From the NCBI GenBank assembly GCA_965207975.1, contig OZ242315.1, positions 5,066,449 through 5,130,448 on the forward strand: a DNA stretch of 64,000 nucleotides. The letters run 5' to 3'. Origin of the DNA: Candidatus Poribacteria bacterium. GTDB taxonomy: Bacteria; Poribacteria; WGA-4E; PCPOR2b. A program made the position numbers and the translations under genes. This document shows, in pieces, positions 35,445-60,732 of this stretch (its first letter is position 1; the number at the start of each line of letters is the position of its first letter). The notes beneath the pieces are model-generated. The model saw only the letters and a program-made list of their open reading frames with translations, was not told where the DNA came from and made no database searches.

Positions 35445-35619
35445 CGTTACGTTCTCCTTTCGCTATATTCTGTTGACATTTTGATGTTGCTAATTCGGCA
35501 AACGTTGTAATCATCGGGCAATCTGACAAATGTAGCGCAAACGATATGAAGTTTAAGTATTTAAAACTGTTAAATGTCAACAGAACCTAATGAACTGCTT
35601 ACGCATCACGTTTTACGTT

Positions 35620-44031: not shown

Positions 44032-46542
44032 ATGAAAAAGAGATTTTTTTTCAAACTTAGCCTTCTATTCGTCTCTACCCTATTTCTACAGAACGGCTTT
44101 GCCCAAGACTACACCCGATGGAGTTTGCCCGAAGGTGCCAAAGCGCGCCTCGGTAAAGGTTGGATTCTCGATTCCGCGTATTCCCCAGATGGCACTCGTA
44201 TCGCGGTAGGGACTAGCATCGGCATTTGGCTTTATGATGCACACACCGGTGCCGAACTTTCCCTACTGACGGGGCATACCGATTGGGTCTGGTCGGTCAC
44301 GTTCTCCCCTGATGGAGAGACACTCGCTAGTGGAAGTTTGGACGACACCATTCGATTGTGGGATGCTCACACAGGCGAATACCAACACACCCTTGAAGGA
44401 CATAGGGATTCAATTTGGTCGGTCGCGTTCTCACCCGATGGAGAGACACTTGCCAGTGGAAGTTCAGACGATGCCGTTCGATTGTGGGATGCCAACACCG
44501 GAGAACACAAACATACCCTTGAAGGACATACAAAGGGAGTTTGGTCGGTCGCGTTCTCCCCTGATGGTGAGACACTTGCTAGTGGCAGTGGAGATAAGAC
44601 CCTTCGGTTGTGGGATGCCCGCACTGGGAAACATCAACAGACACTTGGGGGACATACCCGCAGGATTGAATCGGTTACCTTCTCTCCGGATGGAAGTACA
44701 CTTGCCAGTGGCAGCGGAGATAAGACCATTCGGTTGTGGGATGCCCGCACCGGCGAACTCCAACAGATCCTTGATGGACAGAGGGCCGTCTCCTCTCTCG
44801 CCTTCTCTCCGAATGGGAATACGCTTGCCAGCGGAGGCAGTTGGGACAAGACAATTCAGCTGTGGAATGCCAACACCGGCGAACTCCAGCAGTCCCTCAG
44901 GGGGCATGTGAGCGATATCAATTCTGTTGCTTTCTCCCCGGATGGGAGCACACTCGCTAGTGGAGATGGCCAAGAGATTCGACTCTGGGATGTCCGCACT
45001 TGGGAATACCAGCAGTCCCTTGAAGGACATACGTCTGGAATCTGGTCCCTCGCCCTCTCTCCCGATGGTATTACCCTTGCCACTGGAAGTGTGGATTTTA
45101 GGGATCCCAGCAGCACGCTTCGGTTGTGGAATGCCAACACCGGGGGACTCCAGCAGACCTTTGAAGGACATACGGATTTGGTTTTCTCTCTTGCCTTCTC
45201 TCCCGATGGAAGTACGCTTGCCAGCGGAAGTTGGGGAGAAATTCGGTTGTGGGATACCCACACCGGAGAACACCGGCAAACCTTGGATGGACATAAAGAT
45301 TGGATTGAGTCCCTCGTCTTCTCCCCTGACGGGTCTACTATTGCGAGTGGGAGTGAGGATAAGACGGTTCAATTGTGGGATGCACACACCGGAGAATATC
45401 AGCAAACCCTTGAGGGACATACAGGGCAGGTTTTTTCTGTGGCGTTCTCTCCGGATGGAAATACACTCGCCAGTGGAAGTGTGGACAAGACCATCCGATT
45501 GTGGAACGCACACACCGGGAAATACCAACAAACCCTTGGAGGACATAAAAATTCTGTTTCCTCCCTCGCCTTTTCCCCCGATGGCAGTACGCTTGCCAGT
45601 GGCAGTATAGACGATACGATTCGACTATGGGATGCCCGTACCGGGGAATACCGACAGACCTTGGAAGGTCACACAGATTGGGTAATTTCCGTGGCGTTTT
45701 CTCCCGATGGTAGTACGCTTGCCAGCGGAAGTATGGATAAAACAGCTCGACTGTGGGATGCCATCACCGGCGAGCATAAGCAAACCCTTAACGGGCATAT
45801 ACGAGAGGTCAGATCGATCGCGTTTTCCACGGATGGGGTCACCCTAGCGAGCGGAAGTTTGGACGCCTCTGTTCTGTTGTGGAAACTCACGCCCTCCACC
45901 GGCACGGTTAATCTGTTTGCAGAGGATGTAAATCAGGATGGAGTTGTAAACGCCCTAGATTTGGCTGTGGTTGCGTCACAGTTCGGGCAGTTCAGTCAAG
46001 GCTTAACAGATGTCAACGGAGATGGAATTGTCAATATCCTAGATTTGGTGCTAGTAGCAGGCGCGTTCGGCGAAACGGCAGCTGCGCCTGTAGCACATCA
46101 ACAAATCCTTAAGACACTCACGCCAACAGACGTGCAACAGTGGTTGACCGACACCAAGTCACTTGAAATCAACAATGCTAAGGTTAGAAAAGGGATTACA
46201 GTGCTTGAACAACTCTTAGCAGCACTGACAGAGGCACCAACAATTTCAAAAGAGACAATCCTATTGCCAAACTATCCGAACCCGTTTAACCCGGAGACAT
46301 GGATTCCGTATCGGTTAGCGGAAGACGCAAATGTCACCTTGACTATCTATGATTCAAACGGACATTTGGTTCGGAGTTTTGATGTTGGATATAGGACCGC
46401 AGGTATCTATGAGCGTAGAAACAAAGCCATCTATTGGGATGGGAGAAACGAGATAGGTGAGAAGGTGACAAGCGGCGTGTACTTCTATCATCTGACAACA
46501 GAACAGTATTCAGCGACGAAACGGATGGTCATTCTCAAGTAA
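44032..46542 (+). CDS. Secreted WD40-repeat protein (about 14 repeats) with dockerin-like repeat pair, helical linker and T9SS-type CTD
   Basis: 836 aa. Signal peptide. Repeated GHTDWVWSVTFSPDG.TLASGS.D.TIRLWD units. DVNQDGVVNALDLAVVASQFGQ / DVNGDGIVNILDLVLVAGAFGE dockerin pair. C-terminal ...LPNYPNPFNPETWIPYRLAEDANVTLTIYD...SGVYFYHLTTEQYSATKRMVILK. Confidence 0.85.
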   Translation: MKKRFFFKLSLLFVSTLFLQNGFAQDYTRWSLPEGAKARLGKGWILDSAYSPDGTRIAVGTSIGIWLYDAHTGAELSLLTGHTDWVWSVTFSPDGETLASGSLDDTIRLWDAHTGEYQHTLEGHRDSIWSVAFSPDGETLASGSSDDAVRLWDANTGEHKHTLEGHTKGVWSVAFSPDGETLASGSGDKTLRLWDARTGKHQQTLGGHTRRIESVTFSPDGSTLASGSGDKTIRLWDARTGELQQILDGQRAVSSLAFSPNGNTLASGGSWDKTIQLWNANTGELQQSLRGHVSDINSVAFSPDGSTLASGDGQEIRLWDVRTWEYQQSLEGHTSGIWSLALSPDGITLATGSVDFRDPSSTLRLWNANTGGLQQTFEGHTDLVFSLAFSPDGSTLASGSWGEIRLWDTHTGEHRQTLDGHKDWIESLVFSPDGSTIASGSEDKTVQLWDAHTGEYQQTLEGHTGQVFSVAFSPDGNTLASGSVDKTIRLWNAHTGKYQQTLGGHKNSVSSLAFSPDGSTLASGSIDDTIRLWDARTGEYRQTLEGHTDWVISVAFSPDGSTLASGSMDKTARLWDAITGEHKQTLNGHIREVRSIAFSTDGVTLASGSLDASVLLWKLTPSTGTVNLFAEDVNQDGVVNALDLAVVASQFGQFSQGLTDVNGDGIVNILDLVLVAGAFGETAAAPVAHQQILKTLTPTDVQQWLTDTKSLEINNAKVRKGITVLEQLLAALTEAPTISKETILLPNYPNPFNPETWIPYRLAEDANVTLTIYDSNGHLVRSFDVGYRTAGIYERRNKAIYWDGRNEIGEKVTSGVYFYHLTTEQYSATKRMVILK

Positions 46543-46559
46543 GAAAGGAGAATTGTCTC

Positions 46560-48587
46560 ATGAAAAAGGGACTGTTCTTTAAGTTTAACCTTCTATTTAT
46601 CACTGTCTTTTTTCTGCAAAATGGCTTCGCCCAAGACTACACCCAATGGAACTTGCCCGATGGTGCCAAAGCACGCCTCAGTAAAGGTAGGCTAAATGAC
46701 GTTGTGTATTCGCCAGATGGCACTCGACTCGCGGTCGGAAGTAATATCGGTATTTGGCTCTATGATGCACACACCCGCACCGAAATCGCCCTGTTGACGG
46801 GACATACAGGGATTGTTATGTCAGTTGCGTATTCCCCGGACGGCGGTACACTTGCCGGTGGAGGTGGATGGAGAGATGGTACGATTCGGTTGTGGGACGC
46901 TGCCACCGGTAGACACAAACACACCCTTCAAGGACATACGGAGGGCGTTACTTCTGTAGCGTTCTCACCCGATGGAGAGACACTTGCTAGTGGGAATTAT
47001 AAAGAGATTTGGTTGTGGGATGTCACCACCGGAGAACATAAGCAAACTCTAGAAGGACACACGGATTGGGTGTTTTCCGTGGCGTATTCCCCGGATGGAA
47101 GTACGATCGCTAGTGGAGGTTGGGACGACACAATTCGGTTATGGGATGCCGCCACAGGCAAACACAGACAAACCCTTGAGGGGCACACAGATGGGGTGCG
47201 TTCCGTGGCGTTTTCCCCAGATGGAAGTACGCTTGCCAGTGGAGCTGAGTGGGGAGACAAGACGATTCGGTTGTGGGATACCGCCACAGGCAAACACAAG
47301 CAGACCCTTGAGGGACATAGACGCTGGATCCACGAGGTCAAGTATTCGCCGGATGGGGGTACGCTCGCCAGTGGAAGTGGGGATGGCACAATTCGGTTGT
47401 GGGACGCTACCACCGGAGAACACAAGCAAACCCTTAAAGGGCATACAAATGAGGCATATGCGATCGAGTTTTCACCGGATGGGCGCACCCTCATCAGTGG
47501 GAGTTTTAGAGAAGTATATCTGTGGGATATCACCACCGGCAGCTATGAGCAGATTCTCAAGGGGCATACGGGTGGTATCACCTCCCTAGCGTATTCCCCA
47601 AACGCCAGCACCCTTGCCAGCACGAGTGCGGATGGCACGATCCGGTTGTGGGATACCACCACTCGACAAAATAGGCAGACCCTTTTGGGGCACAAAAGTT
47701 GGGTTTATTCGGTCTTGTATTCCCCAGATGGCGGCACACTCGTGAGTAAGGGGGCTGGAGACGTTCGGCTATGGGATGCTACCACCGGAGAACAGAAGCA
47801 AACCGTGGAGTATAGAGCTAGTGTATCTGCAATTGCGTATTCGCCGGATGGGACCACACTTGCTATCGGGGATGCTGACGGCAGAATTTGGTTGCGGGAT
47901 ATGACCACCGGTGCACATAAGCAAATCCTTCGGCATAGGGGCGTATCTGTAATCGCCTATACCCCGGATGGAAACACGCTTGCCAGTGGGGGTCGGGATA
48001 GCACGATTCAGTTATGGGAGGCGCACACCGGAGAAAATAAGCAAACCCTTGCAGGACATGCCGACGGAGTCGAATCCCTAGCGTTCTCCCCAGATGGAAG
48101 CATACTTGCCAGTGGCAGTAATGATTTCACAATTCGCTTGTGGACTGTTACCACTGGAGAGCAGAAGCACACCCTTGAGGGACACACAGATTGGGTGCTT
48201 TCCGTAGCGTTCTCCCCAGATGGTGGTACACTTGCCAGTGGAGGTGGATGGCGGGATAACACGATTCGGCTGTGGAATGTCCGAACCGGAGAACATAAGC
48301 AGACCCTTGAGGACCATGCAGGTCCTGTCAATTCCCTAGTATACTCCCCGGCTGATGGCACACTTGCCAGTGGGAGTATGGACGGAACAGTTCTGCTGTG
48401 GGCACTCTCACCCGCCATAAGCGCAATGGATATCAATCAAGATGGAGTTATCAACACCCAAGATCTGGAGTTGGTTGCCTCACAATTTGGGCAGTCAGGA
48501 CAAAACAGTGCAGATGTCAACCGAGACGGAATCGTTAATATCTTCGATTTGGTGTCGGTAGCAGGTGCATTCGGGGCAGGACATTGA
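46560..48587 (+). CDS. Secreted WD40-repeat protein, tandem paralog of the previous gene, ending right after the dockerin pair (no CTD)
   Basis: 675 aa. N-terminus nearly identical to the 44032 gene (MKKGLFFKFNLLFITVFFLQNGFAQDYTQWNLPDGAKARL). WD40 repeats and dockerin pair. Stops at ...VSVAGAFGAGH. Confidence 0.8.
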   Translation: MKKGLFFKFNLLFITVFFLQNGFAQDYTQWNLPDGAKARLSKGRLNDVVYSPDGTRLAVGSNIGIWLYDAHTRTEIALLTGHTGIVMSVAYSPDGGTLAGGGGWRDGTIRLWDAATGRHKHTLQGHTEGVTSVAFSPDGETLASGNYKEIWLWDVTTGEHKQTLEGHTDWVFSVAYSPDGSTIASGGWDDTIRLWDAATGKHRQTLEGHTDGVRSVAFSPDGSTLASGAEWGDKTIRLWDTATGKHKQTLEGHRRWIHEVKYSPDGGTLASGSGDGTIRLWDATTGEHKQTLKGHTNEAYAIEFSPDGRTLISGSFREVYLWDITTGSYEQILKGHTGGITSLAYSPNASTLASTSADGTIRLWDTTTRQNRQTLLGHKSWVYSVLYSPDGGTLVSKGAGDVRLWDATTGEQKQTVEYRASVSAIAYSPDGTTLAIGDADGRIWLRDMTTGAHKQILRHRGVSVIAYTPDGNTLASGGRDSTIQLWEAHTGENKQTLAGHADGVESLAFSPDGSILASGSNDFTIRLWTVTTGEQKHTLEGHTDWVLSVAFSPDGGTLASGGGWRDNTIRLWNVRTGEHKQTLEDHAGPVNSLVYSPADGTLASGSMDGTVLLWALSPAISAMDINQDGVINTQDLELVASQFGQSGQNSADVNRDGIVNIFDLVSVAGAFGAGH

Positions 48588-48684
48588 CAGGAAACAATCA
48601 ACCTATCAAAAAATTGCTTTCACATTTCACAGCCTGTCCCGCCTGTCCCGATGTATCGGGGATGTATCGGGGCATCACGTTTCA

Positions 48685-49572
48685 TTAAACTCCCCACCGC
48701 TTCCGCATCTCCTCCATCGGCACCGTTTCGCCCTTCGTCCACGCATAATGCGCGATTGGATCATCTCCAATCCAACGTTCATCCACAGGTTCGTCGGCAC
48801 GTTGATAGCGCGTGTCGGTGCTAAGACGAAATCGGTGGGTTGTGTTGTCCAACGACCCGTGCATGGTGAACATACTGAAGATAAGCACATCTCCCATCTC
48901 AAACGTACTCGTACCCCACCGCCCACCGTAGCGATCCGCCAATTCGATTGGATCATACGAGAACGAACCGGTCACATGGTCCCGATCAACGTCCATCTTG
49001 CCGTAAGTCTCCTTGAGTACCTCAAAACGGTGGGAGCCAACCAGAATCACCAACGGGCCCATGTCGAGCGGTACATCGCCGAGCGGCGTCCAACAGGTAA
49101 CGAGTTGTTGCGTACCACGTCCCATGTAGACGATATCATAGTGTGCGCCGGTAAAGCCGCCCGGCCCGACCACACGCAACCATTTATAATCGTAGGTGAT
49201 GACCGGCGCATCGTAGAAGCTTTCACAAAAGTCCATGATCTCCGGCGATTCGACCAGATTCAGAAATGGGGGCTCATGGGTCACAGCTTTGTTCCCACCC
49301 ATAAACATGCCGCGCTTTCCTTCTGCCGAAATCCCTTCTAAAAGCGGATACGAGCGATCGAGTTGCTCATTTTCGTCCAATTTTTCGAGGAGGAATCGAC
49401 GGGTTGCTTTGACCTTGTCCGGATCGTGCAAGCCGCGAATCAGCAAATAACCGTCCTCCTTAAGCCGGTCTTGAAGTGCCTCGCGGTCGCCGAGTAGATC
49501 GTTCGCTTCACGCAGCCAACCGAGGTACTTTCCACCTAATTCCATCTCTATTTGATTCATCGTTAGAATCAT
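48685..49572 (-). CDS. Phytanoyl-CoA dioxygenase (PhyH)-family Fe(II)/2-oxoglutarate oxygenase
   Basis: ...HYDIVYMGRG...FTMHGSLDNTTHRFRLSTDTRY... is the PhyH-type HxD...H facial triad region. ATG 49572 has a GGAGG RBS located inside the upstream sulfatase's 3' end. The track ORF (to 49656) would overlap the sulfatase. Confidence 0.7.
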   Translation of the reverse strand: MILTMNQIEMELGGKYLGWLREANDLLGDREALQDRLKEDGYLLIRGLHDPDKVKATRRFLLEKLDENEQLDRSYPLLEGISAEGKRGMFMGGNKAVTHEPPFLNLVESPEIMDFCESFYDAPVITYDYKWLRVVGPGGFTGAHYDIVYMGRGTQQLVTCWTPLGDVPLDMGPLVILVGSHRFEVLKETYGKMDVDRDHVTGSFSYDPIELADRYGGRWGTSTFEMGDVLIFSMFTMHGSLDNTTHRFRLSTDTRYQRADEPVDERWIGDDPIAHYAWTKGETVPMEEMRKRWGV

Positions 49573-49573
49573 C

Positions 49574-51181
49574 TTAAGCCTCCGTTTTTCTCCCTTCCAA
49601 AATCTCGCTCCAAGGTTCAACAAAGCAGCGATCTGCCCACGCCTGATACAACTCACTCAGCTCCTCAACCTGTTCTGGAAACTGCGCCGACAGATCGTTG
49701 CACTCGGTGCGATCTATTTCGATGTCGTAAAGTTCCCAATCCCCTGGATACTTGCAAACCAGTTTCCATTTCCCTTTCCGCACCGCTGCATTGCCCTCAT
49801 GCTCCCAAATGAGCACTTCCTTGTCATTCTCTTCTCCGTCAAAGATGGGCGTGAGGCTAGTCCCCTCTAAGGGATAGATTGGGGTCCCGTTGTGTTCGTC
49901 GGGGTAGGTCGCCCCAGAGATTTCAAGGCAGGTCGCCATGATGTCGGGGAGTTGCCCCGGTTGATGGCGCAGCGCACCCGCTGTCTGAATCTGCTGGGGC
50001 CAATGTGCGATGAGCGGTGTCGCAATACCCCCCTCATGTACCCAATGCTTGTACTCGCGGAACGGAGTGTTGGACAGGTTCGCCCACGGAACACCGTAAC
50101 TCTGATATGTGGTTTCCGGTCCCGGCATCATGCTCGGATCGTTGCCCCGATACACAGGTTGCCCATCGTGCGTCGTTTCGGTCTCGATTAAGCCGTCCTT
50201 CCCCACGCGATTCGCAGGGCCCTGAAGCTCTTCCGCGCACCCACCGTTATCGGCTAAGAAAAGGATCAGCGTGTTATCCAATTGACCCGTCTCCTCCAAC
50301 GCCGTCACGATCTGACCAATCCCCTGATCCATCCGATCAATCTGAGCGGCGTAGACCTCCATGCGCCGTTGATTCCACGCTTTGTGCCCCGTTTCCTCCC
50401 ACGGCGGCTGCGTCGGGTCCCGATCTGTCAACGCCCAGCCCTCATCAAGGATACCCATCTCCCGCAGCCGCTGTAGTCGTTCTTCACGGAGTCGATCCCA
50501 CCCCGCCGTAAAACGTCCCTCATAACGTGCGATGTCTGCGTCGTGAGCGTGGAGAGGCCAATGGGGCGAGGTGTAGGCAACATAGGTGAAGAACGGCTGA
50601 TCAGAAGTCCCCTCCGCATGGTCTCGGATAAACGCAGACGCTTCATCACTGATCGCGTCGGTCAAGAAAAAGCCTTCGGGCAATTCGTCGTGTGGGATAT
50701 GCTCGTTATCGCGGGTCAGTGTGTTCGGCTTCCAGTAGTTCGCCGCTCCTGTGATAATGCCGAAATAGCGATCAAAACCGCGCTGCAGGGGCCAACTGTG
50801 TTTCGGTCCGTCCGGATCGGTATGTCGAGAGATATGCCACTTGCCACTCATGTAGGTCCGATACCCCGCAGGTCTGAGGGCTTCAGCGATAGTGACACAG
50901 CGGTCATTCAAATCCCCACGATACCCCTCCAAACCATCGTCTGACATCATGTGGCCAACCCCAGTCTGATGCGGGTGGAGCCCCGTCAGCATCGAAGCCC
51001 GCGAAGGACAGCAACGGGCGGTGTTATAGAACTGCGTGAATCGCAATCCACCGCTAGCCAGCCGATCCAGATTCGGACTGTGGATCTCCCCGCCGTAACA
51101 ACCGAGATCCGAATAGCCCATGTCATCGTTCAAAATTAGAAGTATATTCGGTTTTTTGTTTTCGCTCATATCTTTCCCCAT
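49574..51181 (-). CDS. Arylsulfatase (formylglycine-dependent sulfatase family)
   Basis: 535 aa. Sulfatase signature ...TARCCPSRASMLTGLHPHQTGV... (C-x-P-x-R) and N-terminal metal-binding LNDDMGYSD. Confidence 0.85.
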   Translation of the reverse strand: MGKDMSENKKPNILLILNDDMGYSDLGCYGGEIHSPNLDRLASGGLRFTQFYNTARCCPSRASMLTGLHPHQTGVGHMMSDDGLEGYRGDLNDRCVTIAEALRPAGYRTYMSGKWHISRHTDPDGPKHSWPLQRGFDRYFGIITGAANYWKPNTLTRDNEHIPHDELPEGFFLTDAISDEASAFIRDHAEGTSDQPFFTYVAYTSPHWPLHAHDADIARYEGRFTAGWDRLREERLQRLREMGILDEGWALTDRDPTQPPWEETGHKAWNQRRMEVYAAQIDRMDQGIGQIVTALEETGQLDNTLILFLADNGGCAEELQGPANRVGKDGLIETETTHDGQPVYRGNDPSMMPGPETTYQSYGVPWANLSNTPFREYKHWVHEGGIATPLIAHWPQQIQTAGALRHQPGQLPDIMATCLEISGATYPDEHNGTPIYPLEGTSLTPIFDGEENDKEVLIWEHEGNAAVRKGKWKLVCKYPGDWELYDIEIDRTECNDLSAQFPEQVEELSELYQAWADRCFVEPWSEILEGRKTEA

Positions 51182-51649
51182 TAGTATGCCTAAAAGCCTT
51201 GAAGCATATCATAAATTATATTTTTAACCTGAACCATCACCCATTAAAAATTCATCAATCTTCCCGTAGGGGCGGGGTCTCTCCGCCCGCCAAGCCCTCT
51301 ACCCTCACCCGCTCCCCATCTCTGCGGCAAATTAACTCTGGTTTTCCCGTCTTCTCGTTTTCCCGTTTTCACCCAACTTAATCCGCGTAATCCTTTAATC
51401 CTCTTAATCCGCGATTCAGACAAAATATTTCACGCTTAGTGTATCAAAGATTCACACGCGGATCAAGCGAATTATTAGAAGTGAGGTGTCGGGATTCGGA
51501 GATCCCTCCTACAGGAGAATTGAACGCCCCTAATCAAGGCGCAATGGTCTTGACGCAAACCTGACCTTATGGTAAACTCGGTATCTGAATCGCAGCAGCA
51601 TCACCAACCTAAGTAAAAAAACAATATCCTATAACGCCCAAAAAAACCG

Positions 51650-52885
51650 ATGCTTACACTCGACCTGCTCCGCTATCGAATTCAAGAAGACGAGGTTTGC
51701 CCCCGCTATGTGAACCCGCAAAGCAGAAAGTACCGTGCAATCGCAAAGGATCTGATCGAGATTTACACCGCACATCTCAACAAGACCAAAGGGGCACTCG
51801 CTTCAGCACTAGCAGATTATGAAGCGGCTGACACCAACTACCAGATTATGCGGGGACTTGCCAAACTGCTCGAAGATCGCTCGGAATTTACGGTTCAATC
51901 CCCAATTGAGCCGGAGGTGCTTCGAGAACAAATCTTCGCCTACGCGAGTAAACACCATCCAGTTGTAACCAAAGGAGATAGACGGCACCGGCATACATCT
52001 CCAAAAGCACTCACGAAAATCGCCGATGAACTTAACATCTCGGCAGACACAGTGATGGACGGTATGTATGCGGACCTAGAGGAGAACCGCCTGCTGACAG
52101 GGTTCGATTCGCCGACCGCCGAGTGGTTACTAGACCGGTATAACGTCGCACTCGCCCAAGCGATGCTCTACCGCGCCAGCGAAATGACAATCCGCATCTA
52201 TCGCAATATCCCAACAAAATACAAGTTAGTATTCCAGTTCATCAAGTTTTTTAAGCTGATGCACGTCGTCTCTGGGAACAATGCCGATGGCTATCAAATC
52301 GTTCTCGACGGTCCCGCCTCCATGTTCCGCCTGTCGCAGAAGTACGGTATCCAGATGGCACTGTTTCTACCCGCGCTGTTACACTGCGATCGATGGTGGC
52401 TGGACGCAACAATTGTCATGAACAAAAACGAGCATCTCCGATTTAACCTCACCGACGAATTTGGATTACAATCCCACTATCGCGACCCCGGCGAGTTTGA
52501 CAGCGAACTGGAGCGACATTTCGCAACACAATTTGAGGCAATCGATACAGAGTGGCACCTTGAGCGCGAGACGGACATCATCAATCTCAAAGACACCGTG
52601 ATGATTCCAGACTTCGCCTTCTCACACCCCGACGGACGACGAGCGTTGATGGAAATCGTCGGTTTCTGGACACCGGATTACCTCCAGAAAAAACTGTGGA
52701 AACTCAAACGCGCTGCTATGCCGAACATGATCAGTGCTGTGTCAGATCAGCTAAACTGTTCGACCGAAGATTTCCGAGACATCCCCGGCGAAGTGCTCTT
52801 TTTCAAAACGCGGATTAAACCCAAAGACGTGCTGGAAAAGGTCGAAGCCTGTGCGATTCCTGAGAAGAATCCAGTACACCCGTAG
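51650..52885 (+). CDS. DUF790-family (Bax1-like) nuclease, apparently without adjacent XPB-type helicase
   Basis: 411 aa. N-terminus MLTLDLLRYRIQEDEVCPRYVNPQS fits the DUF790/Bax1 N-terminal pattern (LL..R..GD.I.PRY). Family assignment is from memory of that pattern. Confidence 0.45.
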   Translation: MLTLDLLRYRIQEDEVCPRYVNPQSRKYRAIAKDLIEIYTAHLNKTKGALASALADYEAADTNYQIMRGLAKLLEDRSEFTVQSPIEPEVLREQIFAYASKHHPVVTKGDRRHRHTSPKALTKIADELNISADTVMDGMYADLEENRLLTGFDSPTAEWLLDRYNVALAQAMLYRASEMTIRIYRNIPTKYKLVFQFIKFFKLMHVVSGNNADGYQIVLDGPASMFRLSQKYGIQMALFLPALLHCDRWWLDATIVMNKNEHLRFNLTDEFGLQSHYRDPGEFDSELERHFATQFEAIDTEWHLERETDIINLKDTVMIPDFAFSHPDGRRALMEIVGFWTPDYLQKKLWKLKRAAMPNMISAVSDQLNCSTEDFRDIPGEVLFFKTRIKPKDVLEKVEACAIPEKNPVHP

Positions 52886-53152
52886 GTTGAATACCCCCGC
52901 TCACACGATTCTCTCGCATTTACCCCACCCATAGCCCCATCTGCTTTGAATCTCGCGATAAATCTCAATAAAATTGGAATCGAAATGGAACTAATCTTTT
53001 CGGGGTGGGGTGATATGTATCGAATATCAGAAATCTAACGCCAAATAAAAGGCTCTCAGTTTCTGATGGAGGGAGTACTGCCTTGCCTCTTCTAACCCAC
53101 CGAAGCACCTCTGTTTCTCACACATATTTCCAACCCCAGAGAGGATCGATTC

Positions 53153-55003
53153 GTGACAAAACGACCTTTTCGTTTCATCTTATTTTCTTTGATTTGTCTT
53201 TCAATGCCGTTGACAGCAACCGCGCAAGTCGTATTCATCCCTGACTCCAACCTCCGCGCTGCCATTGAGGATCATCTCGGCAAAGCACCCGGTGCCACCA
53301 TCACTGTGGCGGACATGGCACGGTTGACCAGTCTTGTCGCCCCTACTCGGAACATCACCTATTTGACAGGGCTTGAAGCTGCAACCAACCTGATATCATT
53401 GCGGCTTGGGAATAATTATATATCCGACATCTCACCCCTAGCAGGATTAACTAACTTGACACGACTGGAGCTTAACAACAACCTCATATCGGACCTCTGG
53501 CCCCTCGTCGCAAATAGGGGATTGGGAGGCGGCGACACAGTTGATGTGAAGGGAAATCCGCTCAGCGTCCTATCCTTCAACAACTACATTCCCACCCTCC
53601 AAAGCAGAGGAATTGTCATTGAGTTTGACGAAATCGCACCACCACCGCAAACGGTGAACATACCCGACCCCAATCTCCGCAACGCCATCACGCAGGTGCT
53701 CGGCAAAGCATTCAGTGCCCCTATTACTGTGGAGAACATGCAAAGTTTGGAGGTGCTTTACGCCGGTAATGCGAACATCCGCAATTTAACAGGGCTTGAA
53801 ACCGCTGCTAACCTAAGGGAACTGGGGCTTGAAGCTAACTCCATATCCGACCTATCACCCATATCCGGATTAACCAATCTGACATTCTTACATCTTCGGA
53901 ACAACGCCATATCCAACATCTCACACCTTGCGAAATTAACCCAACTTACATTCCTACATATTGGACTGAACCGTATATCCAACATCTCACACCTGGCCGG
54001 ATTAACTCAACTGACAGGACTAGGGGCCGGAGATAATGAGATAACAGACATTTCACCCCTAGCGAGATTACCGAACCTAGCAAGGATTGGACTCCACTAT
54101 AACGCCATATCCAACATCTCACACCTGGCCGGATTAACTCAACTGAGGGAACTACATCTTCACAACAACACCATATCCGACATCACACCGCTATCAGGAT
54201 TAACTCAACTGACAGTACTATATCTTCAGGAAAACTCAATATCTGATCTCTCACCCCTTGTCATAAATACAGGACTGGGGAATGGGGACTACGTGGATGT
54301 GAGGGAAAATCCCCTCAACGCCCTATCCACCAACACTCACATTCCTGCCCTCCAAAGTAGAGGGGTTAACGTTGAGTTTGACGACATCGTCGTGCGGTCG
54401 GTGGATGTCAACCGCGATGGTGTCGTAAATATTTTTGATTTGGTCTCAGTTGCGTCCCAGTTTGGAAAGCAAGGGCAAAATCTGGCGGCAGATACGAACG
54501 GAGATGGTGTTGTCAATATTTTCGATTTGGTTGTGATTACAAGCGCGTTTGGAGATGCAGCAGCTGCACCTTCAGCACAGCCACAAGGGACACTCACGAC
54601 GGCAGAGGTTCGGGGTTGGCTGACCGATGCAAGGACGCTTACGGTTAAGGATCCCATCATGGAACGAGGGATTATGACCCTTGAACAACTCTTGAGATCC
54701 CTGACACCAACAGAGACTAAGTTGTTGCCGAATTATCCGAATCCGTTTAACCCCGAAACGTGGATTCCGTATCGACTGGCGGAGGCCGCTTTCGTCACCC
54801 TGACCATCTATGACGGAGTAGGTCAGATTGTCCGCACCTTCGACGTGGGGTATCAGACTGCAGCAGCCTACGAAAGTCGGTCAAACGCAATCTACTGGGA
54901 TGGCAGAAACAAAATCGGTGAGCCGGTTGCAAGCGGTGTGTACCTTTACACCCTGACAGCAGGCGATTTTTCCGCCACACGAAAAATGGTGATTGTCAAA
55001 TAG
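53153..55003 (+). CDS. Secreted leucine-rich-repeat (internalin-like LRR) protein with dockerin-like pair, helical linker and T9SS-type CTD
   Basis: 616 aa. Signal peptide. Two blocks of 22-aa LRRs (…LTNLTRLELNNNLISDLWPL…). VDVNRDGVVNIFDLVSVASQFG / DTNGDGVVNIFDLVVITSAFG. C-terminal ...LPNYPNPFNPETWIPYRLAEAAFVTLTIYD...ATRKMVIVK. Confidence 0.85.
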   Translation: MTKRPFRFILFSLICLSMPLTATAQVVFIPDSNLRAAIEDHLGKAPGATITVADMARLTSLVAPTRNITYLTGLEAATNLISLRLGNNYISDISPLAGLTNLTRLELNNNLISDLWPLVANRGLGGGDTVDVKGNPLSVLSFNNYIPTLQSRGIVIEFDEIAPPPQTVNIPDPNLRNAITQVLGKAFSAPITVENMQSLEVLYAGNANIRNLTGLETAANLRELGLEANSISDLSPISGLTNLTFLHLRNNAISNISHLAKLTQLTFLHIGLNRISNISHLAGLTQLTGLGAGDNEITDISPLARLPNLARIGLHYNAISNISHLAGLTQLRELHLHNNTISDITPLSGLTQLTVLYLQENSISDLSPLVINTGLGNGDYVDVRENPLNALSTNTHIPALQSRGVNVEFDDIVVRSVDVNRDGVVNIFDLVSVASQFGKQGQNLAADTNGDGVVNIFDLVVITSAFGDAAAAPSAQPQGTLTTAEVRGWLTDARTLTVKDPIMERGIMTLEQLLRSLTPTETKLLPNYPNPFNPETWIPYRLAEAAFVTLTIYDGVGQIVRTFDVGYQTAAAYESRSNAIYWDGRNKIGEPVASGVYLYTLTAGDFSATRKMVIVK

Positions 55004-55020
55004 CGGTACGTCCACTCCAC

Positions 55021-55049
55021 CCGTAGGCGGGGCATCTTGCCCCGCCTAT
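55021..55049. repeat. GTAGG-headed REP-like palindrome (ccgtaggcggggcatcttgccccgcctat) 18 nt after LRR gene stop
   Basis: Inverted repeat seen directly. Family member. Confidence 0.6.
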
Positions 55050-55698
55050 ATTTCTAGAGGGGCAATCTGTACGTCTTTCGCTCCAGAAGAGCGTAATGTC
55101 TATAGAATCACGATACCCACAATCTCCGCGCTCCAGTTGCTTTGAATCCCGCTTGTCCCGATTCATCGGGGAGGAGCGCAATGTGGATAGCACTGGACTA
55201 GTGAACTAGCACAGTTCCGCCGGTGGGACAGATAACAGCTTCAACCATCATACCAATCTCGCCATAAATTTTCCTCCACCAATCAAACTTCTATTTCACA
55301 GCACTTCAAAATTTATAGGAGTTACGCACTTCAGTAGGGAACGCAGATCTGCGTTCCCTACGAACTCCTTGAGGGCGTCTCTGCTGGAGTTGCCCAATTT
55401 GTCGGGTATTGGCAACGGTGTCCTGTAACGATAAATCGCCGAACTGCAAGTCGAAGACTCCCGGAACGGAGGCGTTGAGCGTTCAACTGCATAAGCCCTA
55501 ATTTATCAAACTCAACCGGAAAAAGCGAAAAAAGTGTTGACTGCTATTGAAGTTTCTAGTATTTTGATTGTCACTGGATTTCGTATCGGTTGGCAGATCA
55601 GGCTTTCGTCACCCTGACCATCTATTAGGACTTACACAGCTGAATGCCCCAACGCCTCTCACACCTCTGACCGCCAAGGAGATAAATCCATACAAAGT

Positions 55699-58600
55699 AT
55701 GAAAAAACTCCGATTTTGGGCTTTTACGCTCCTGCTGATTTTCCTGCTATTCCTACCCATGAGAGTAACGACCGCCCAACTCATAGCAACCCTTGAAGGG
55801 CATACGGATAATGTCTGGAGCGTAGCATTCAGTCCGGATGGCAAAACCCTTGCCAGTGGGAGTCGGGACCAAACCGTCCGCCTGTGGGATGTAGAGACAG
55901 AACAACTCTTGCACATCCTCACCGGACATACAAATGAGGTACTGAACGTTGCGTTTAGTCTTGATGGCAAAACCCTTGTTAGCAGCGACTGGGATGGAAC
56001 CATTCGATTATGGAATCCAAGCACAGGAAAACTTAAAAAAACGCTTACTGACCATAGGGGCGGAGTTGGATCGGTCGTGTTCAGTCCTGATGGGAAGATG
56101 CTTGCCAGTGGGAGTGCGGACCAGACGGTTCGGTTATGGAATACGACCACATGGCAGGTCGAAAGAACGCTTATGGGTCATACGCTAGTCGTTGATGTCG
56201 TCGCGTTTTCCCCGGATGGCGCAATGCTTGCCAGTGGCAGTCGGGACCAAACCATTCGCCTATGGAATCCAAATACCGGAAAACATATAAGAACCCTCAC
56301 CGGACACACGAGTGATGTCCTGCGTATGACGTTCAGTCCCGATGGTGGAACACTTGCGAGTGGTAGTCTGGACAGCACTATCCGCTTATGGAATCCAAAC
56401 ACCGGAAAACTCAACAGAACACTCACCAATCAGGGAGGTTGGGTGAATCCGGTGGCGTTCAGTCTTGATGGGGGGACGCTTGCCATTGGCGGTCAAGGGA
56501 TTAGGTTGTGGGATACAGCCACAGAGAAATACAAAAGACCTCTCATTGATGATATAGGAAATGCCGTATCTATTGTATTCAGTCCTGACGGGCAAACCGT
56601 TGCCAGTGGCAGTGCAGACAATTTAGTTCGTCTGTTGAAATCCACGCCCCCTGAAGTGCCTTTTGCCACCATTCCGTTTGATATTACTAACATTCCCGAA
56701 CCCGTGCCACCCCCAAAAGAAGTCCGTGACTTTTTTGATCTAGATCCATTTTATCAGCAGTGGATAAATGTCGAAGGCTTTCCTGTCTTAGCATCGGAGA
56801 AGGTGAGTCCCTACGCCCTAAAGGAAGCTGCGTGGCAAATCTATCATATAAGCAGGCATCGCCCGGAGCTGCTGCAAATCATGACGCAAAGACGGATTCG
56901 TTTTTCCATAATCGCCTATAATGAAGTGCCAAGCGACATTCCCGAGATCGGTGCACGGCCTGCTCCCCATTTTTTTGTTAATGTCCGTAATCGCGCTGGG
57001 AATTATACCCTCGCTCGCACAGTGCTTGACAATGAGGTATCCCTGCTTTCCCGTCCCATATCCTCTGGTCTGATTCACGAAATGACTCACGCATTCCACG
57101 AAGTGTTGAATACGATTGACACTGAATTTAACAACCGACTCAAGGCGACGTATGACGCGGCACTAGAAAAAGGATTGTGGCGCGATTACTATGCTGCGAC
57201 ACATTGGGGTGAGTGTTTTGCTGAAGGGGCAATGTCTTGGTTTAACGCAACTCAATTCAACGCTGTCAACACGCGGGAAGAGTTGAAAATGTATGACCCA
57301 GGGCTCGCTATATTGCTCACCGAAGTTTTTGGTGATAGTGATTGGCGATACACTCTGCCCGAAACGCGGACACATCTGCCCCACCTTCAGGGATTTAATC
57401 CGCAGTTGGCACCACAGCAGACTGAATTCCCGCCGGGGCTGCTGGAGGCTTATAACGAATTGCTTGACCCGGCGATCGTTGAAACTAGTGAGTGGGTCAA
57501 TTTACCGCCGTATCATCCTTCTCTGATCCCGATGTTAAACGAATCAACAACTGGCGATAGCTCCTATATTCTTTTCGTAAACCTCAGTGGTGCTGCGGTT
57601 TTAGTATATTGGGTGCGTCCTGATGGCACAGAGATTTATACTTATCGTTCTTCTGCCGATCCCAATCAGATGTTTGAATTCAACATTGGGGTTGGTCGTC
57701 TCTTGCTAGTCAAAGACCTTGATGGCAGAAACCTCGCTGTGTTTCAAGCCGTGGAAAAAGTAGGCAGAGCTCGTGTTGCCCCGACACTTCATTTGATAAC
57801 ACCCGGACTTTCAAAAATTTCAGGCGATAATCAGAGTAGTGTGCCCGGTGCGGTTCTAGCGAACCCATTTGTTATTGAAGTACGGGATGAGAATGGTTCA
57901 GTGCTTGAAGGGATTTCGGTCACGTTTACCGTTACCACAGGCAATGGAACGCTCAGTGTCCTCCACACCACAACCGATGAAAATGGTCGAGCAAAGAGTA
58001 CACTCACAATAGGAACAAATCTAGGAACAAACACTGTTTCTGTGTCCGCCACTGGAATTGGGGAAACGGTTGCCTTTAATGTCGTAGCGGATGCTGCGGT
58101 AGACATCCCCGACGCCAACCTCCGCGCTACGATTGAGACCGCACGCGGCAAAGCACCGGGGGAGTCCATCACCGGGGCGGATATGGCAATGTTGCCGAAG
58201 TTGGATGCGCGCAATACAGGCATCAGCGATTTGACCGGGCTGGAACACGCAACCAACCTGACAGAGTTATTAATTGGTGCTGAGGTTGTAGATAACAGTT
58301 GGATTAACAGCAATTGGGTTTCAGACCTCTCACCCCTTGTAGACTTAACTAACCTAACACGACTGGGGCTTAGAGAAAACACCATATCGGATATTTCGGC
58401 TCTTGGAGGCTTAACCAACCTGACATGGCTGGATCTTTGGGAAAACAACATTAAGGACATCTCAGCGTTGCAGGGTTTGACCAATCTAACAGAGCTGCGG
58501 CTTGGAGGGAACAAGATTACGGACATCTCCCCGGTGGCAGGTTTTATCAACCTAGAAACGCTGCTTCTTAGGGACAATAACATATCGGATATCTCGGCTA

Positions 58601-59781
58601 TTTCAGGCTTAACCAACCTAACACGGTTGGGGCTTGCACACAACAACATCTCGGACCTCTCACCTCTAGCAAGATTAACCAACTTGGCAACATTGGGACT
58701 TCACGGCAACCGTATATCAGACCTCTCGCCTTTGGCTGGATTAACCAACTTGGCAAAGGTGGTGCTGCGGAGAAACCCCTTGAGCTACCAATCTATCCAC
58801 ACCCACATCCCCGACCTCCAAAGCAGAGGGGTTACGGTATACTTTGACAATCAAGCACATCCAGCACTTCTGAAAATCTCAGGCGATAACCAGAAAGGGA
58901 TAGCTTTCGCACCACTGTCTCAGCCATTTGTCGTTGAAGCACAAGACGCGAACGGCTCTGTGCTCGCAGGGATTTCGGTTACATTTGCCGTCACTGCGGG
59001 TGGTGGCATGCTCAACACCACAATCACAAGAACCGATGCCAACGGCAGAGCAGAGAGTACGCTCACACTGGGACCCAACCTAGGAACAAACACCGTCGAA
59101 GTGTCTGCCGCTGGAATTCGGGGGAAAGCCATCTTTAACGCTATCTCCGATACGGAAGCACCACCAATTACAGCGGATGTCAACAACGACGGAAACGTGA
59201 ATGTCTTGGATTTGGTCGTGATTGCATCTGAACTTGGAAATGCAGGGACCAATCTGGCAGTAGATGTTAACCGAGATGGGGCTGTCAATGTTCTGGATCT
59301 AATAATGGTTGCAGGTATGTTTGATAGCGCAGCAGCTGCACCTTCAGCACACCCACAAGTCTCTGAAACACTCATAACGGTAGAGGTTCACGGTTGGCTA
59401 ATCGACGCTAGGGCACTTGAGGTGAGAGATCCCATCATGAAACGGGGATTTCTGGTGCTTAAGCAGCTCTTGGTCTCCCTAACCCCAAAAGAGACAGAAC
59501 TGTTAGCAAACTATCCCAATCCTTTTAATCCTGAGACATGGATACCGTATCGGCTAGCAGAGGACGCTTTTGTCACCTTGACCATCTATGACGAAGCGGG
59601 GCGGGTTGTCCGTACACTTGAGGTTGGACATCGGATTGCAGCTGCCTACGAGAGTCGATCGCAGGCAATCTATTGGGACGGCAGAAACCAAGTCGGTGAG
59701 CAAGTGGCAAGCGGTGTCTACTTCTACCACCTGTCCGCGGGCGATTATTCCGCCACACGAAAAATGTTGATTCTCAAATAG
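55699..59781 (+). CDS. Giant secreted multidomain protein: WD40 propeller, HExxH metallopeptidase-like domain, Ig-like (Big-type) domain, LRR block, second Ig-like domain, dockerin-like pair, helical linker, T9SS-type CTD
   Basis: 1360 aa. Signal peptide. 7 WD40 units. ...SGLIHEMTHAFHEVLN... HExxH. ...GISVTFTVTTGNGTLSVLHTTTDENGRAKSTLTIGTNLGTNTVSVSATG... Ig-like domain, repeated later. LRRs (…LTNLTRLGLRENTISDISAL…). ADVNNDGNVNVLDLVVIASELG / DVNRDGAVNVLDLIMVAGMF. C-terminal CTD. Confidence 0.85.
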   Translation: MKKLRFWAFTLLLIFLLFLPMRVTTAQLIATLEGHTDNVWSVAFSPDGKTLASGSRDQTVRLWDVETEQLLHILTGHTNEVLNVAFSLDGKTLVSSDWDGTIRLWNPSTGKLKKTLTDHRGGVGSVVFSPDGKMLASGSADQTVRLWNTTTWQVERTLMGHTLVVDVVAFSPDGAMLASGSRDQTIRLWNPNTGKHIRTLTGHTSDVLRMTFSPDGGTLASGSLDSTIRLWNPNTGKLNRTLTNQGGWVNPVAFSLDGGTLAIGGQGIRLWDTATEKYKRPLIDDIGNAVSIVFSPDGQTVASGSADNLVRLLKSTPPEVPFATIPFDITNIPEPVPPPKEVRDFFDLDPFYQQWINVEGFPVLASEKVSPYALKEAAWQIYHISRHRPELLQIMTQRRIRFSIIAYNEVPSDIPEIGARPAPHFFVNVRNRAGNYTLARTVLDNEVSLLSRPISSGLIHEMTHAFHEVLNTIDTEFNNRLKATYDAALEKGLWRDYYAATHWGECFAEGAMSWFNATQFNAVNTREELKMYDPGLAILLTEVFGDSDWRYTLPETRTHLPHLQGFNPQLAPQQTEFPPGLLEAYNELLDPAIVETSEWVNLPPYHPSLIPMLNESTTGDSSYILFVNLSGAAVLVYWVRPDGTEIYTYRSSADPNQMFEFNIGVGRLLLVKDLDGRNLAVFQAVEKVGRARVAPTLHLITPGLSKISGDNQSSVPGAVLANPFVIEVRDENGSVLEGISVTFTVTTGNGTLSVLHTTTDENGRAKSTLTIGTNLGTNTVSVSATGIGETVAFNVVADAAVDIPDANLRATIETARGKAPGESITGADMAMLPKLDARNTGISDLTGLEHATNLTELLIGAEVVDNSWINSNWVSDLSPLVDLTNLTRLGLRENTISDISALGGLTNLTWLDLWENNIKDISALQGLTNLTELRLGGNKITDISPVAGFINLETLLLRDNNISDISAISGLTNLTRLGLAHNNISDLSPLARLTNLATLGLHGNRISDLSPLAGLTNLAKVVLRRNPLSYQSIHTHIPDLQSRGVTVYFDNQAHPALLKISGDNQKGIAFAPLSQPFVVEAQDANGSVLAGISVTFAVTAGGGMLNTTITRTDANGRAESTLTLGPNLGTNTVEVSAAGIRGKAIFNAISDTEAPPITADVNNDGNVNVLDLVVIASELGNAGTNLAVDVNRDGAVNVLDLIMVAGMFDSAAAAPSAHPQVSETLITVEVHGWLIDARALEVRDPIMKRGFLVLKQLLVSLTPKETELLANYPNPFNPETWIPYRLAEDAFVTLTIYDEAGRVVRTLEVGHRIAAAYESRSQAIYWDGRNQVGEQVASGVYFYHLSAGDYSATRKMLILK

Positions 59782-59790
59782 TCCGCCGCG

Positions 59791-60732
59791 TGTTATAATA
59801 ACGCAAGTTGCTAGTTGAATATCCATGGAATTTCCGTTAGAGTATTTGTGTCTCAAACAAAACTCTTAAAACAGGAGAATCCCATGGACTTAGTAATCGT
59901 AGCATTTTATACACTTTGTGACGATCTGTTAATTGAACACGGATATCAAGACGACCCACGAGCCAAAATGTCTGCCGCAGAAGTAATGACCACTGCCTTA
60001 GTCGCAGCAGAACTGTTCGGTGGCAATCAACAGATGGCACGGTGTCTACTCAAGGAGCAGGGATATATTCCCCATATGCTCAGTAAGGCACGATTCAATC
60101 GAAGACTCCATCAAATTGCACCGATGTTTCAGACACTTTTTGAATCACTTGCCACAGACTGTAAAGCACAAAACTCAGACCAACTCTATATCATCGACTC
60201 GTATCCCGTGCCAGTGTGTGATGTGATTCGCATCTCTAGTGCAAAACTTTATCAAGGGGAAGTCTGGCGCGGTAAGATAACCAGCAAACGGAGATACTTC
60301 TATGGACTCAAACTGCATCTGATGGTCACCGAAAGTGGCATACCGGTTGAGTTCTTCTTAACACCGGGCAGTTTTAGTGATGTTCGGGGGTTGCGGTGTT
60401 ATCCGTTTGATTTACCTCAAGGGGCAACCATTTATGCAGATAAAGCCTACTGCAATTATGGGATTGAAGATGCCTTAGCTGAAGCCGGTATCATGCTCAA
60501 ACCGTTGCGAAAAAAGAACAGCAAACGGCAATATCAAGCCCACGAAGTTTACATACACCATCACCACAGGAAGCGGATAGAGGTGACAAACAGTTTAATC
60601 ACCCAACGGCTACCCCGCTCTATTCATGCCGTCACTGCCGATGGGTTTGAGATTAAGATTATTTTGTTTCTCATTGCTACTATGATTACACTTATCATTA
60701 AATAAACACTAGCAACTTGCGTTATAATAACC
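59791..60732 (+). mobile_element. IS982-family insertion sequence with 24-bp terminal inverted repeats (one mismatch)
   Basis: IR-L tgttataataacgcaagttgctagt (59791-59815). IR-R reverse complement ggttattataacgcaagttgctagt (60709-60732). Encloses one DDE transposase ORF. Confidence 0.75.
59884..60705 (+). CDS. IS982-family DDE transposase
   Basis: ...LYIIDSYPVPVC...GLKLHLMVTESGIPVEF...IYADKAYCNYGIEDALAEAGIML...RKRIEVTNSL... is consistent with the DDE triad spacing of IS982 transposases. ATG 59884 has an AGGAGA RBS. Confidence 0.7.
   Translation: MDLVIVAFYTLCDDLLIEHGYQDDPRAKMSAAEVMTTALVAAELFGGNQQMARCLLKEQGYIPHMLSKARFNRRLHQIAPMFQTLFESLATDCKAQNSDQLYIIDSYPVPVCDVIRISSAKLYQGEVWRGKITSKRRYFYGLKLHLMVTESGIPVEFFLTPGSFSDVRGLRCYPFDLPQGATIYADKAYCNYGIEDALAEAGIMLKPLRKKNSKRQYQAHEVYIHHHHRKRIEVTNSLITQRLPRSIHAVTADGFEIKIILFLIATMITLIIK

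Follow-up and report, generated by a model that had tools for sequence, protein, structure and literature searches.

The genes examined here combine features of two described systems. The first is the cellulosome of Clostridia, in which type I dockerins and their cohesin partners (PF00404/PF00963) hold carbohydrate-active enzymes (CAZymes); these dockerins consist of a duplicated 22-residue F-hand with canonical calcium ligands. Cohesin and dockerin modules outside cellulosomes are scattered across bacteria and archaea, where their roles are mostly unknown. The second is the type A cargo of T9SS, the type IX secretion system, in Bacteroidota, such as the gingipains of Porphyromonas gingivalis, which carry a signal peptide and a C-terminal beta-sandwich of about 90 residues (TIGR04183/PF18962) with a YPNP-type first motif and a basic/hydrophobic last motif. 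We analysed a stretch of 64,000 nt of Candidatus Poribacteria DNA (contig OZ242315.1 of assembly GCA_965207975.1; hereafter the window), in which secreted repeat proteins end in a cassette made of a dockerin, a helical spacer domain and a C-terminal domain (CTD) of the second type.

Poribacteria are a mostly sponge-associated phylum, in line with the host-associated setting that an earlier reading of this DNA (the sequence-only reading) had proposed. Genes for eukaryote-like proteins of Poribacteria, especially those with WD40 repeats, often encode a TIGR04183 domain; WD40 and leucine-rich repeat (LRR) genes are abundant, and PhyH was stressed, with PhyH and sulfatase genes nearby (Kamke et al., 2014; PMC3909097). 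The window agrees with that report in its WD40 and LRR proteins with TIGR04183 domains and in its PhyH and sulfatase neighbours. The same report describes no dockerin or cohesin, no helical domain, no fixed three-part order, no dockerin-only class and no cohesin partners, and a literature search returned nothing tying Poribacteria to dockerin or cohesin, nor to T9SS components beyond that study. The combination of WD40 repeats and TIGR04183 in Poribacteria is already known, and the dockerin, helical-domain and cohesin layer appears to be undescribed.

On balance, we favour the interpretation that the window encodes parts of a Ca2+-dependent cohesin-dockerin surface-display system, built on a lineage-typical three-part tail whose cassettes are old paralogs. 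This interpretation is suggested by the Dockerin_1 matches, a conserved adjacent cohesin gene, fusions of cohesins to the cassette, a class of proteins ending at the dockerin, and the terminal TIGR04183 domain.

Genes and cassette architecture

Five genes are considered, with positions given on whole-window coordinates:

44032-46542, + strand: WD_A, 836 aa; signal peptide, about 13 WD40 repeats (WD40, 525.8 bits) and the full cassette
46560-48587, + strand: WD_B, 675 aa; signal peptide, WD40 repeats and a terminal dockerin only
53153-55003, + strand: LRR, 616 aa; signal peptide, two LRR blocks (LRR_4, 133 bits) and the cassette
55699-59781, + strand: MULTI, 1360 aa; signal peptide, WD40 propeller, HExxHxxH domain (residues 316-710), Big_1, LRR, Big_1 and the cassette
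40179-42329, - strand: COH; signal peptide, cohesin, spondin domain and the CTD shared with the cassette genes, without a dockerin

Translation of the open reading frames (ORFs) and a motif scan confirmed the four + strand genes of the sequence-only reading and their pairs of DxNxDGxVNxxDL repeats; a six-frame scan found eight such repeats, two in each of these genes. A C-terminal module shared by all four had been proposed. The full cassette (dockerin, AAAP junction, helical stretch and CTD) is present in WD_A, LRR and MULTI, that is, in three of the four, but not in WD_B, which stops 3 residues past its dockerin. In the same scan, the AAAP junction in its cassette context was confined to these three among the + strand genes. 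Their tails follow the pattern LLPNYPNPFNPETWIPY...YWDGRN...SGVYFY...RKMxIxK, and the combination NPFNPET, YWDGRN and RKMxIxK directly before a stop codon recurred a single time on the minus strand, in COH. Different scaffolds (WD40, LRR, Big_1) are thus indeed fused to a common unit of dockerin, helical domain and CTD. The parts are located as follows:

45919-46077, + strand: WD_A dockerin; two F-hand repeats, DVNQDGVVNALDL and DVNGDGIVNILDL; Dockerin_1 at cassette residues 11-56
46078-46260, + strand: WD_A helical spacer domain; AAAP...WL...GI..LEQLL..L..KET; three helices
46261-46542, + strand: WD_A C-terminal sorting-type domain; LLPNYPNPFNPETWIPY ... KRMVILK, then stop; TIGR04183 at residues 748-834
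48429-48467 and 48513-48551, + strand: WD_B dockerin repeats, from the motif scan and Dockerin_1
54398-54559 (dockerin), 54560-54721 (helical domain) and 54722-55003 (CTD), + strand: LRR cassette, from motif positions
59170-59331 (dockerin), 59332-59499 (helical domain) and 59500-59781 (CTD), + strand: MULTI cassette, from family matches

Amino acid identity among the cassettes of WD_A, LRR and MULTI is 60-68% over ~200 residues; in the linker between dockerin and CTD it is 46-69%. By inspection, all four + strand proteins have a Sec-type N-terminus (basic, hydrophobic, then small residues), for example MKKRFFFKLSLLFVSTLFLQNGFA/QD in WD_A, which agrees with the earlier description of them as secreted proteins. 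The description of a cluster of four holds in that all four genes are present, but three genes unrelated to them, for PhyH, sulfatase and DUF790, lie between the pair WD_A/WD_B and the pair LRR/MULTI, and COH had been overlooked.

Several ORFs of 150-360 aa lie in other frames of, or antisense to, the WD40 and LRR genes (44464-45546, -; 44312-44911, +; 46997-47536, -; 57831-58682, -). These are most likely by-products of repetitive coding sequence and not genes.

Dockerin and helical spacer domain

Dockerin_1 (PF00404) was detected in WD_A (48.7 bits), WD_B (35.9), LRR (30.6) and MULTI (34.7), all above the Pfam cutoff of 22.9. As in cellulosomal type I dockerins, the F-hand is duplicated: all eight repeats match D-x-[ND]-x-[DN]-G-x-[VI]-N-x-x-D, with the calcium ligand positions D1/N3/D5/D12 intact. 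A cassette profile searched against PDB matched solved dockerins (best 2y3n_B, E 9e-10). In AlphaFold 2 (AF2) models, the dockerin had a predicted local distance difference test score (pLDDT) of ~90 and two helices after the loops. Foldseek comparison of the dockerin plus helices with PDB yielded a local match only, to the C. cellulolyticum dockerin 2vn5_B (49 columns, root mean square deviation 2.4 A, TMt 0.62), which is weak (E 2.3). The whole-cassette model had no significant Foldseek match in PDB, because this model is a flexible multi-domain chain.

The sequence matches to solved dockerins and the weak local structure match, together with a cohesin gene nearby, are what the locus shares with cellulosomal pairs. 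The differences are also clear. The poribacterial dockerin is internal, being followed by the helical domain and the CTD; the host belongs to a Gram-negative candidate phylum; cohesin binding is predicted here; and the cargo consists of WD40, LRR and Big_1 domains in place of the CAZymes of the clostridial cellulosome. The 25 families shown for 51 cassette proteins are confined to dockerin, FlgD_ig, LRR and WD40-type families and include no CAZyme family, which sets these proteins apart from a cellulosome. The ORFs found to encode cohesins have one cohesin each, and none of them is a multi-cohesin scaffoldin.

The spacer comprises about 55-60 residues between dockerin and CTD and was modelled by AF2 as three helices (pLDDT 75-93). 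Its invariant columns are A, P, W, L, G, L, L and L, and profile searches gave no Pfam, NCBIfam or PDB relative. Modelled together, dockerin and helices reached a pLDDT of 81.8 and a predicted template modelling score (pTM) of 0.77, which suggests that the two form a single compact unit. A spacer-only profile recovered 1024 clusters at 50% identity, 726 of them at E <= 1e-10. Among the best 149 of these 1024 clusters, the order dockerin-linker-CTD was seen in 131, and the linker ended 93-94 residues from the C-terminus in 113. The spacer of divergent Poribacteria is 57-75 residues long and retains the AAAP start.

C-terminal domain

TIGR04183, the NCBIfam model of the T9SS type A sorting domain (cutoff 23), was matched by WD_A (35.7 bits), LRR (31.5), MULTI (31.0) and COH (30.1). 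The match stops 2 residues before the stop codon, and in every case the CTD forms the very end of a protein that has an N-terminal signal peptide. The Pfam family Por_Secre_tail (PF18962; cutoff 27) was passed by WD_A with 31.0 bits, while the other two cassettes scored 22.8 and 23.9. All four CTDs passed FlgD_ig (PF13860; cutoff 27) with 34.2-37.0 bits (WD_A 36.6, LRR 34.3, COH 37.0). The profile searches suggested by the sequence-only reading therefore gave a mixed outcome: Dockerin_1 is found in all four genes and TIGR04183 in all CTDs, but Por_Secre_tail in one of three cassettes. Judged from these profile matches, the CTD is a member of the FlgD-Ig/CTD beta-sandwich class.

A FlgD context is absent. 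No other FlgD family was listed for the CTD proteins, the scanned neighbours are metabolic genes, and the cargo is WD40, LRR, Big_1 or cohesin. Since nothing else in the proteins or their neighbourhood is flagellar, these are not FlgD proteins. The assignment of the CTD to a secretion domain in the sequence-only reading is weakened by the scores above the FlgD_ig threshold and by FlgD being the best solved relative, but the FlgD context is lacking.

Without the rest of the cassette, CTDs headed by NYPNPFNP/ETWIPY also occur across FCB-type phyla, on large proteins of Bacteroidota, Ignavibacteria, Calditrichota, Cloacimonadota, Marinimicrobia, Latescibacterota, KSB1, Zixibacteria, Fibrobacteres, Gemmatimonadota and Chlorobiaceae. 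The poribacterial proteins share with classical T9SS type A cargo the signal peptide, the C-terminal beta-sandwich of ~90 residues, the YPNP-type first motif and the basic/hydrophobic last motif. Unlike that cargo, they have an extended invariant motif, NYPNPFNPETWIPY, and an obligatory upstream module of dockerin and helices, and their host phylum lies beyond the Bacteroidota and the Fibrobacteres-Chlorobi-Bacteroidetes (FCB) group and has no reported T9SS machinery. The motif NYPNPFNPETWIPY is a block of 14 residues, 100% invariant in 44 sequences, which AF2 modelled as disordered. This invariance, combined with modelled disorder, fits a linear recognition or processing element.

Cohesin proteins and dockerin-only proteins

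The domains of COH are:

41883-42227, - strand: cohesin (PF00963; 32.4 bits, cutoff 24.1), residues 35-149
41187-41777, - strand: spondin domain (Spond_N 30.1 bits; NF038123 107.7 bits)
40179-40448, - strand: CTD (FlgD_ig 37.0 bits; TIGR04183 30.1 bits)

COH is divergent to WD_A at a distance of 1.7 kb. Its position is conserved in L080, a syntenic metagenome contig of 79-89% nt identity with the order cohesin-spondin-CTD / 3HCDH / WD_A / WD_B / PhyH / sulfatase / DUF790. PF00963 was found on all 120 homologs listed for the COH cohesin (167 matches). In nine poribacterial ORFs, a cohesin is located directly upstream of a dockerin-(linker)-CTD unit (L002 3658-7845 and 7967-10603, L003 5720-10603, L004 1811-4699, L017 8165-10654, and others in L010, L013, L014 and L030); such fusion proteins could, in principle, chain head-to-tail. 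Another locus, L027, encodes a COH-like protein with an N-terminal cohesin and a CTD, followed by a dockerin-only gene. Based on its domains and position, COH is a candidate docking partner for the dockerin proteins.

WD_B ends with ...GAFGAGH, its stop codon being located 3 residues past the second dockerin repeat. It has neither the helical domain nor the CTD, and no CTD remnant was detected in any frame downstream; the 97 nt that separate WD_B from the next gene leave no room for a hidden cassette remnant. The WD_B ortholog in L080 likewise stops right past the dockerin. In total, eight poribacterial ORFs, WD_B among them, stop 0-3 residues past the dockerin and so form a genuine second class of proteins.

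The possibility that WD_B is a truncated pseudogene was considered and rejected, because its ortholog and seven other poribacterial ORFs stop at the same point.

Distribution and cargo

A database search with the WD_A cassette returned >6200 matches, the best 120 of which cover ~95% of the cassette at 56-85% identity. Wherever a taxon is named among these 120, it is Candidatus Poribacteria; the NCBI name of the proteins is 'T9SS type A sorting domain-containing protein'. Looking up the exact LRR protein in the assembly collection gave no record. In a genome scan with one genome per GTDB species, the full cassette was found only in metagenome-assembled genomes (MAGs) of Ca. Poribacteria and in a few unclassified MAGs (L001-L021, L030). 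The 51 full-length members included 47 with Dockerin_1, 47 with FlgD_ig, 27 with LRR_4 and 24 with WD40. This census indicates that the association with WD40 and LRR cargo is the rule for the cassette family.

The sequence-only reading regarded the combination of dockerin and T9SS-type CTD as unusual. This view has to be softened in the light of the ~1000 clusters recovered, the WD40 and TIGR04183 combination published in 2014, and an analogue in Gemmatimonadota (CP070758.1, L050 4600-17122). There, four tandem genes encode a dockerin-like repeat, a helical spacer of ~45 residues and a CTD beginning with QNYPNPFNPET..., so that the general layout is not unique to Poribacteria. The order of the parts is the same as in the poribacterial tail, and the dockerin-like loop-helix reads DCNxDGxVDxLD. 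The Gemmatimonadota tail differs, however, in its Cys-containing dockerin-like type, which is mostly a single repeat, and in a spacer unrelated to the hidden Markov model of the poribacterial linker.

One part of the cargo deserves separate mention. Residues 316-710 of MULTI (56644-57828) form a domain of ~390 aa that recurs in 16/149 cassette-bearing representatives at 40-62% identity, and also in the syntenic L080 contig (17222-18389; about 43-51%). Its HExxH region had no Pfam, NCBIfam or PDB match. Conservation of HExxHxxH and of a downstream EYWAEG-like motif in the aligned homologs shown points to a possible zincin-like metallopeptidase, and this domain may be an undescribed cargo of that type.

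Proposed surface display and alternative explanations

In the display system favoured here, the proteins would be exported by the Sec pathway across the inner membrane via their N-terminal signal peptides. By analogy with T9SS type A cargo, the CTD would then guide them to the outer membrane or through it and bring about their attachment to the surface. The type-I-like dockerin, with its two predicted Ca2+-binding F-hand repeats, would bind cohesins of partner proteins in a Ca2+-dependent manner, the candidate partners being COH in the window and cohesin-dockerin-CTD proteins in other Poribacteria. The outcome would be a non-catalytic, cellulosome-like surface assembly showing WD40 and LRR binding scaffolds, in which WD_B, having a dockerin and no CTD, would be held solely via cohesin binding.

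Several points weigh against such a system. The purpose of docking is unclear if the dockerin proteins and COH are each anchored separately, and the model offers no account of how WD_B, which lacks a CTD, would pass the outer membrane. Many dockerin-like modules from outside cellulosomes are not known to have a cohesin partner. The scores of the CTD are as high or higher with FlgD_ig, its best PDB relative is FlgD (7eh9, E 9e-5; 7bhq, E ~1e-4) versus E 0.18 for the PorU CTD, and the AF2 confidence of the CTD is just 50-72. No component of the T9SS machinery (PorK/L/M/N, Sov/SprA, PorV, PorU, PorZ) was seen among the window genes scanned, a survey that did not extend to a genome-wide search. 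No Por/T9SS structural genes were found in poribacterial single-cell genomes either (Kamke et al., 2014; PMC3909097), which leaves the export step without a known machine.

The CTD may instead be a retained FlgD-Ig-like beta-sandwich with a structural or adhesive role, in which case export, if any, would take another route, such as the type II secretion system, and the T9SS-like matches would reflect shared fold and ancestry only. FlgD_ig passing in all CTDs, Por_Secre_tail passing in one of three cassettes and FlgD structures as best PDB sequence matches would all be explained in this way, as would the absence of reported T9SS structural genes from a phylum that is placed outside the FCB group in the NCBI taxonomy. 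We nevertheless regard this explanation as unlikely, given that all four CTDs exceed the TIGR04183 cutoff and that the domain always forms the last ~90 residues, closing with a K/R-rich hydrophobic tail, as is typical of CTD signals, and with a signal peptide always present here. Moreover, large proteins from Bacteroidota, Ignavibacteria, Calditrichota, Cloacimonadota and other groups have CTDs headed by the identical NYPNPFNP/ETWIPY motif, and there is WD40/LRR cargo but no FlgD context. Still less probable, in our view, is that the dockerin-like pair serves as a Ca2+-stabilised structural spacer with no cohesin binding, next to a cohesin gene by coincidence. Such a role would agree with the moderate dockerin scores (30-49 bits), which are accompanied by weak EF-hand matches, with cargo other than CAZymes and with the lack of a multi-cohesin scaffoldin among the ORFs found. 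It would not readily account for the cohesins of the same subfamily fused upstream of the cassette in 9 ORFs or for the proteins with N-terminal cohesin and CTD in the window, L080 and L027, and the 8 ORFs that end at the dockerin are hard to explain by a mere pre-CTD spacer.

A different explanation of the shared cassette was offered by the sequence-only reading, which deduced recent module exchange from high DNA identity. The cassette would then be a mobile unit that the genes of the cluster passed to one another through gene conversion or recombination. The occurrence of the same three-part cassette on unrelated N-terminal scaffolds does require shuffling at some time; an IS-type transposase gene follows MULTI, and LRR and MULTI share an exact match of 23 nt at the AAAP junction. 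This match, however, is the longest between any two cassettes. The codon-aligned cassettes of WD_A, LRR and MULTI have 65-75% DNA identity, with the number of synonymous substitutions per synonymous site (dS) being 0.76 for LRR-MULTI and ranging from 1.5 to saturation (>1.5) for pairs with WD_A. Even in the stretch cited for high identity, DNA identity is 77-81% while 22-23/23 residues are identical, so the differences are essentially synonymous, and the identity had been overstated. For each cassette of the window, other assemblies contain relatives with 78-87% aa identity as compared with 59-67% for the window paralogs, which ranked 91st-178th of about 250. Identity of the WD_A cassette amounts to 85% with its L080 ortholog versus 59-61% with the window paralogs, and the ratio of nonsynonymous to synonymous substitution (dN/dS) in this orthologous pair is 0.11 for the dockerin, 0.29 for the linker and 0.10 for the CTD. 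Largely saturated synonymous sites, closer relatives elsewhere, synteny and low dN/dS mark the cassettes as old paralogous lineages under purifying selection. The cassette was indeed shuffled onto its different scaffolds, though far in the past, and a recent exchange is highly improbable.

Among the genomic features proposed to underlie the dealings of sponge symbionts with their hosts, eukaryote-like repeat proteins are the main hallmark. Extending the surface-display interpretation to this setting, we tentatively propose that Poribacteria may possess a surface network of Ca2+-dependent cohesin-dockerin contacts, a non-catalytic 'cellulosome', that displays eukaryote-like proteins with WD40 and LRR repeats to their sponge host; its members would be exported by a TIGR04183-type signal, with the three-helix domain and NYPNPFNPETWIPY as the recognition or processing element. 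If true, this network implies a CTD-dependent export machine yet to be discovered, or else a T9SS of divergent type beyond the FCB group. The shared tail itself sharpens a question raised in 2014: by what machine are TIGR04183-type domains handled, given that no T9SS genes are recognised in the phylum? The fixed tail and the cohesin partners give testable predictions: Ca2+-dependent pairing, surface localisation and CTD processing.

Neighbouring genes

The PhyH ORF downstream of WD_B (48685-49656, -; 323 aa, GTG start) shares 83 nt with the sulfatase gene (49574-51181, -). Since the PhyH ortholog in L080 was called at 295 aa, the real start is probably located further downstream. The DDE transposase gene (DDE_Tnp_1_3 / DDE_Tnp_1; 59815-60705, +) begins 34 nt past the MULTI stop codon.

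Elsewhere in the window, a Type ISP restriction-modification enzyme of 1035 aa (Type_ISP_C, ISP_coupler, N6_Mtase) is encoded at 24946-28053 (-). Two neighbouring paralogs at 34338-36912 (-) each combine an N-terminal SHOCT-like domain with a DUF4097 'toastrack' domain, and this gene pair is followed by a gene for a DUF6785/DUF6784 membrane protein (38026-39954).

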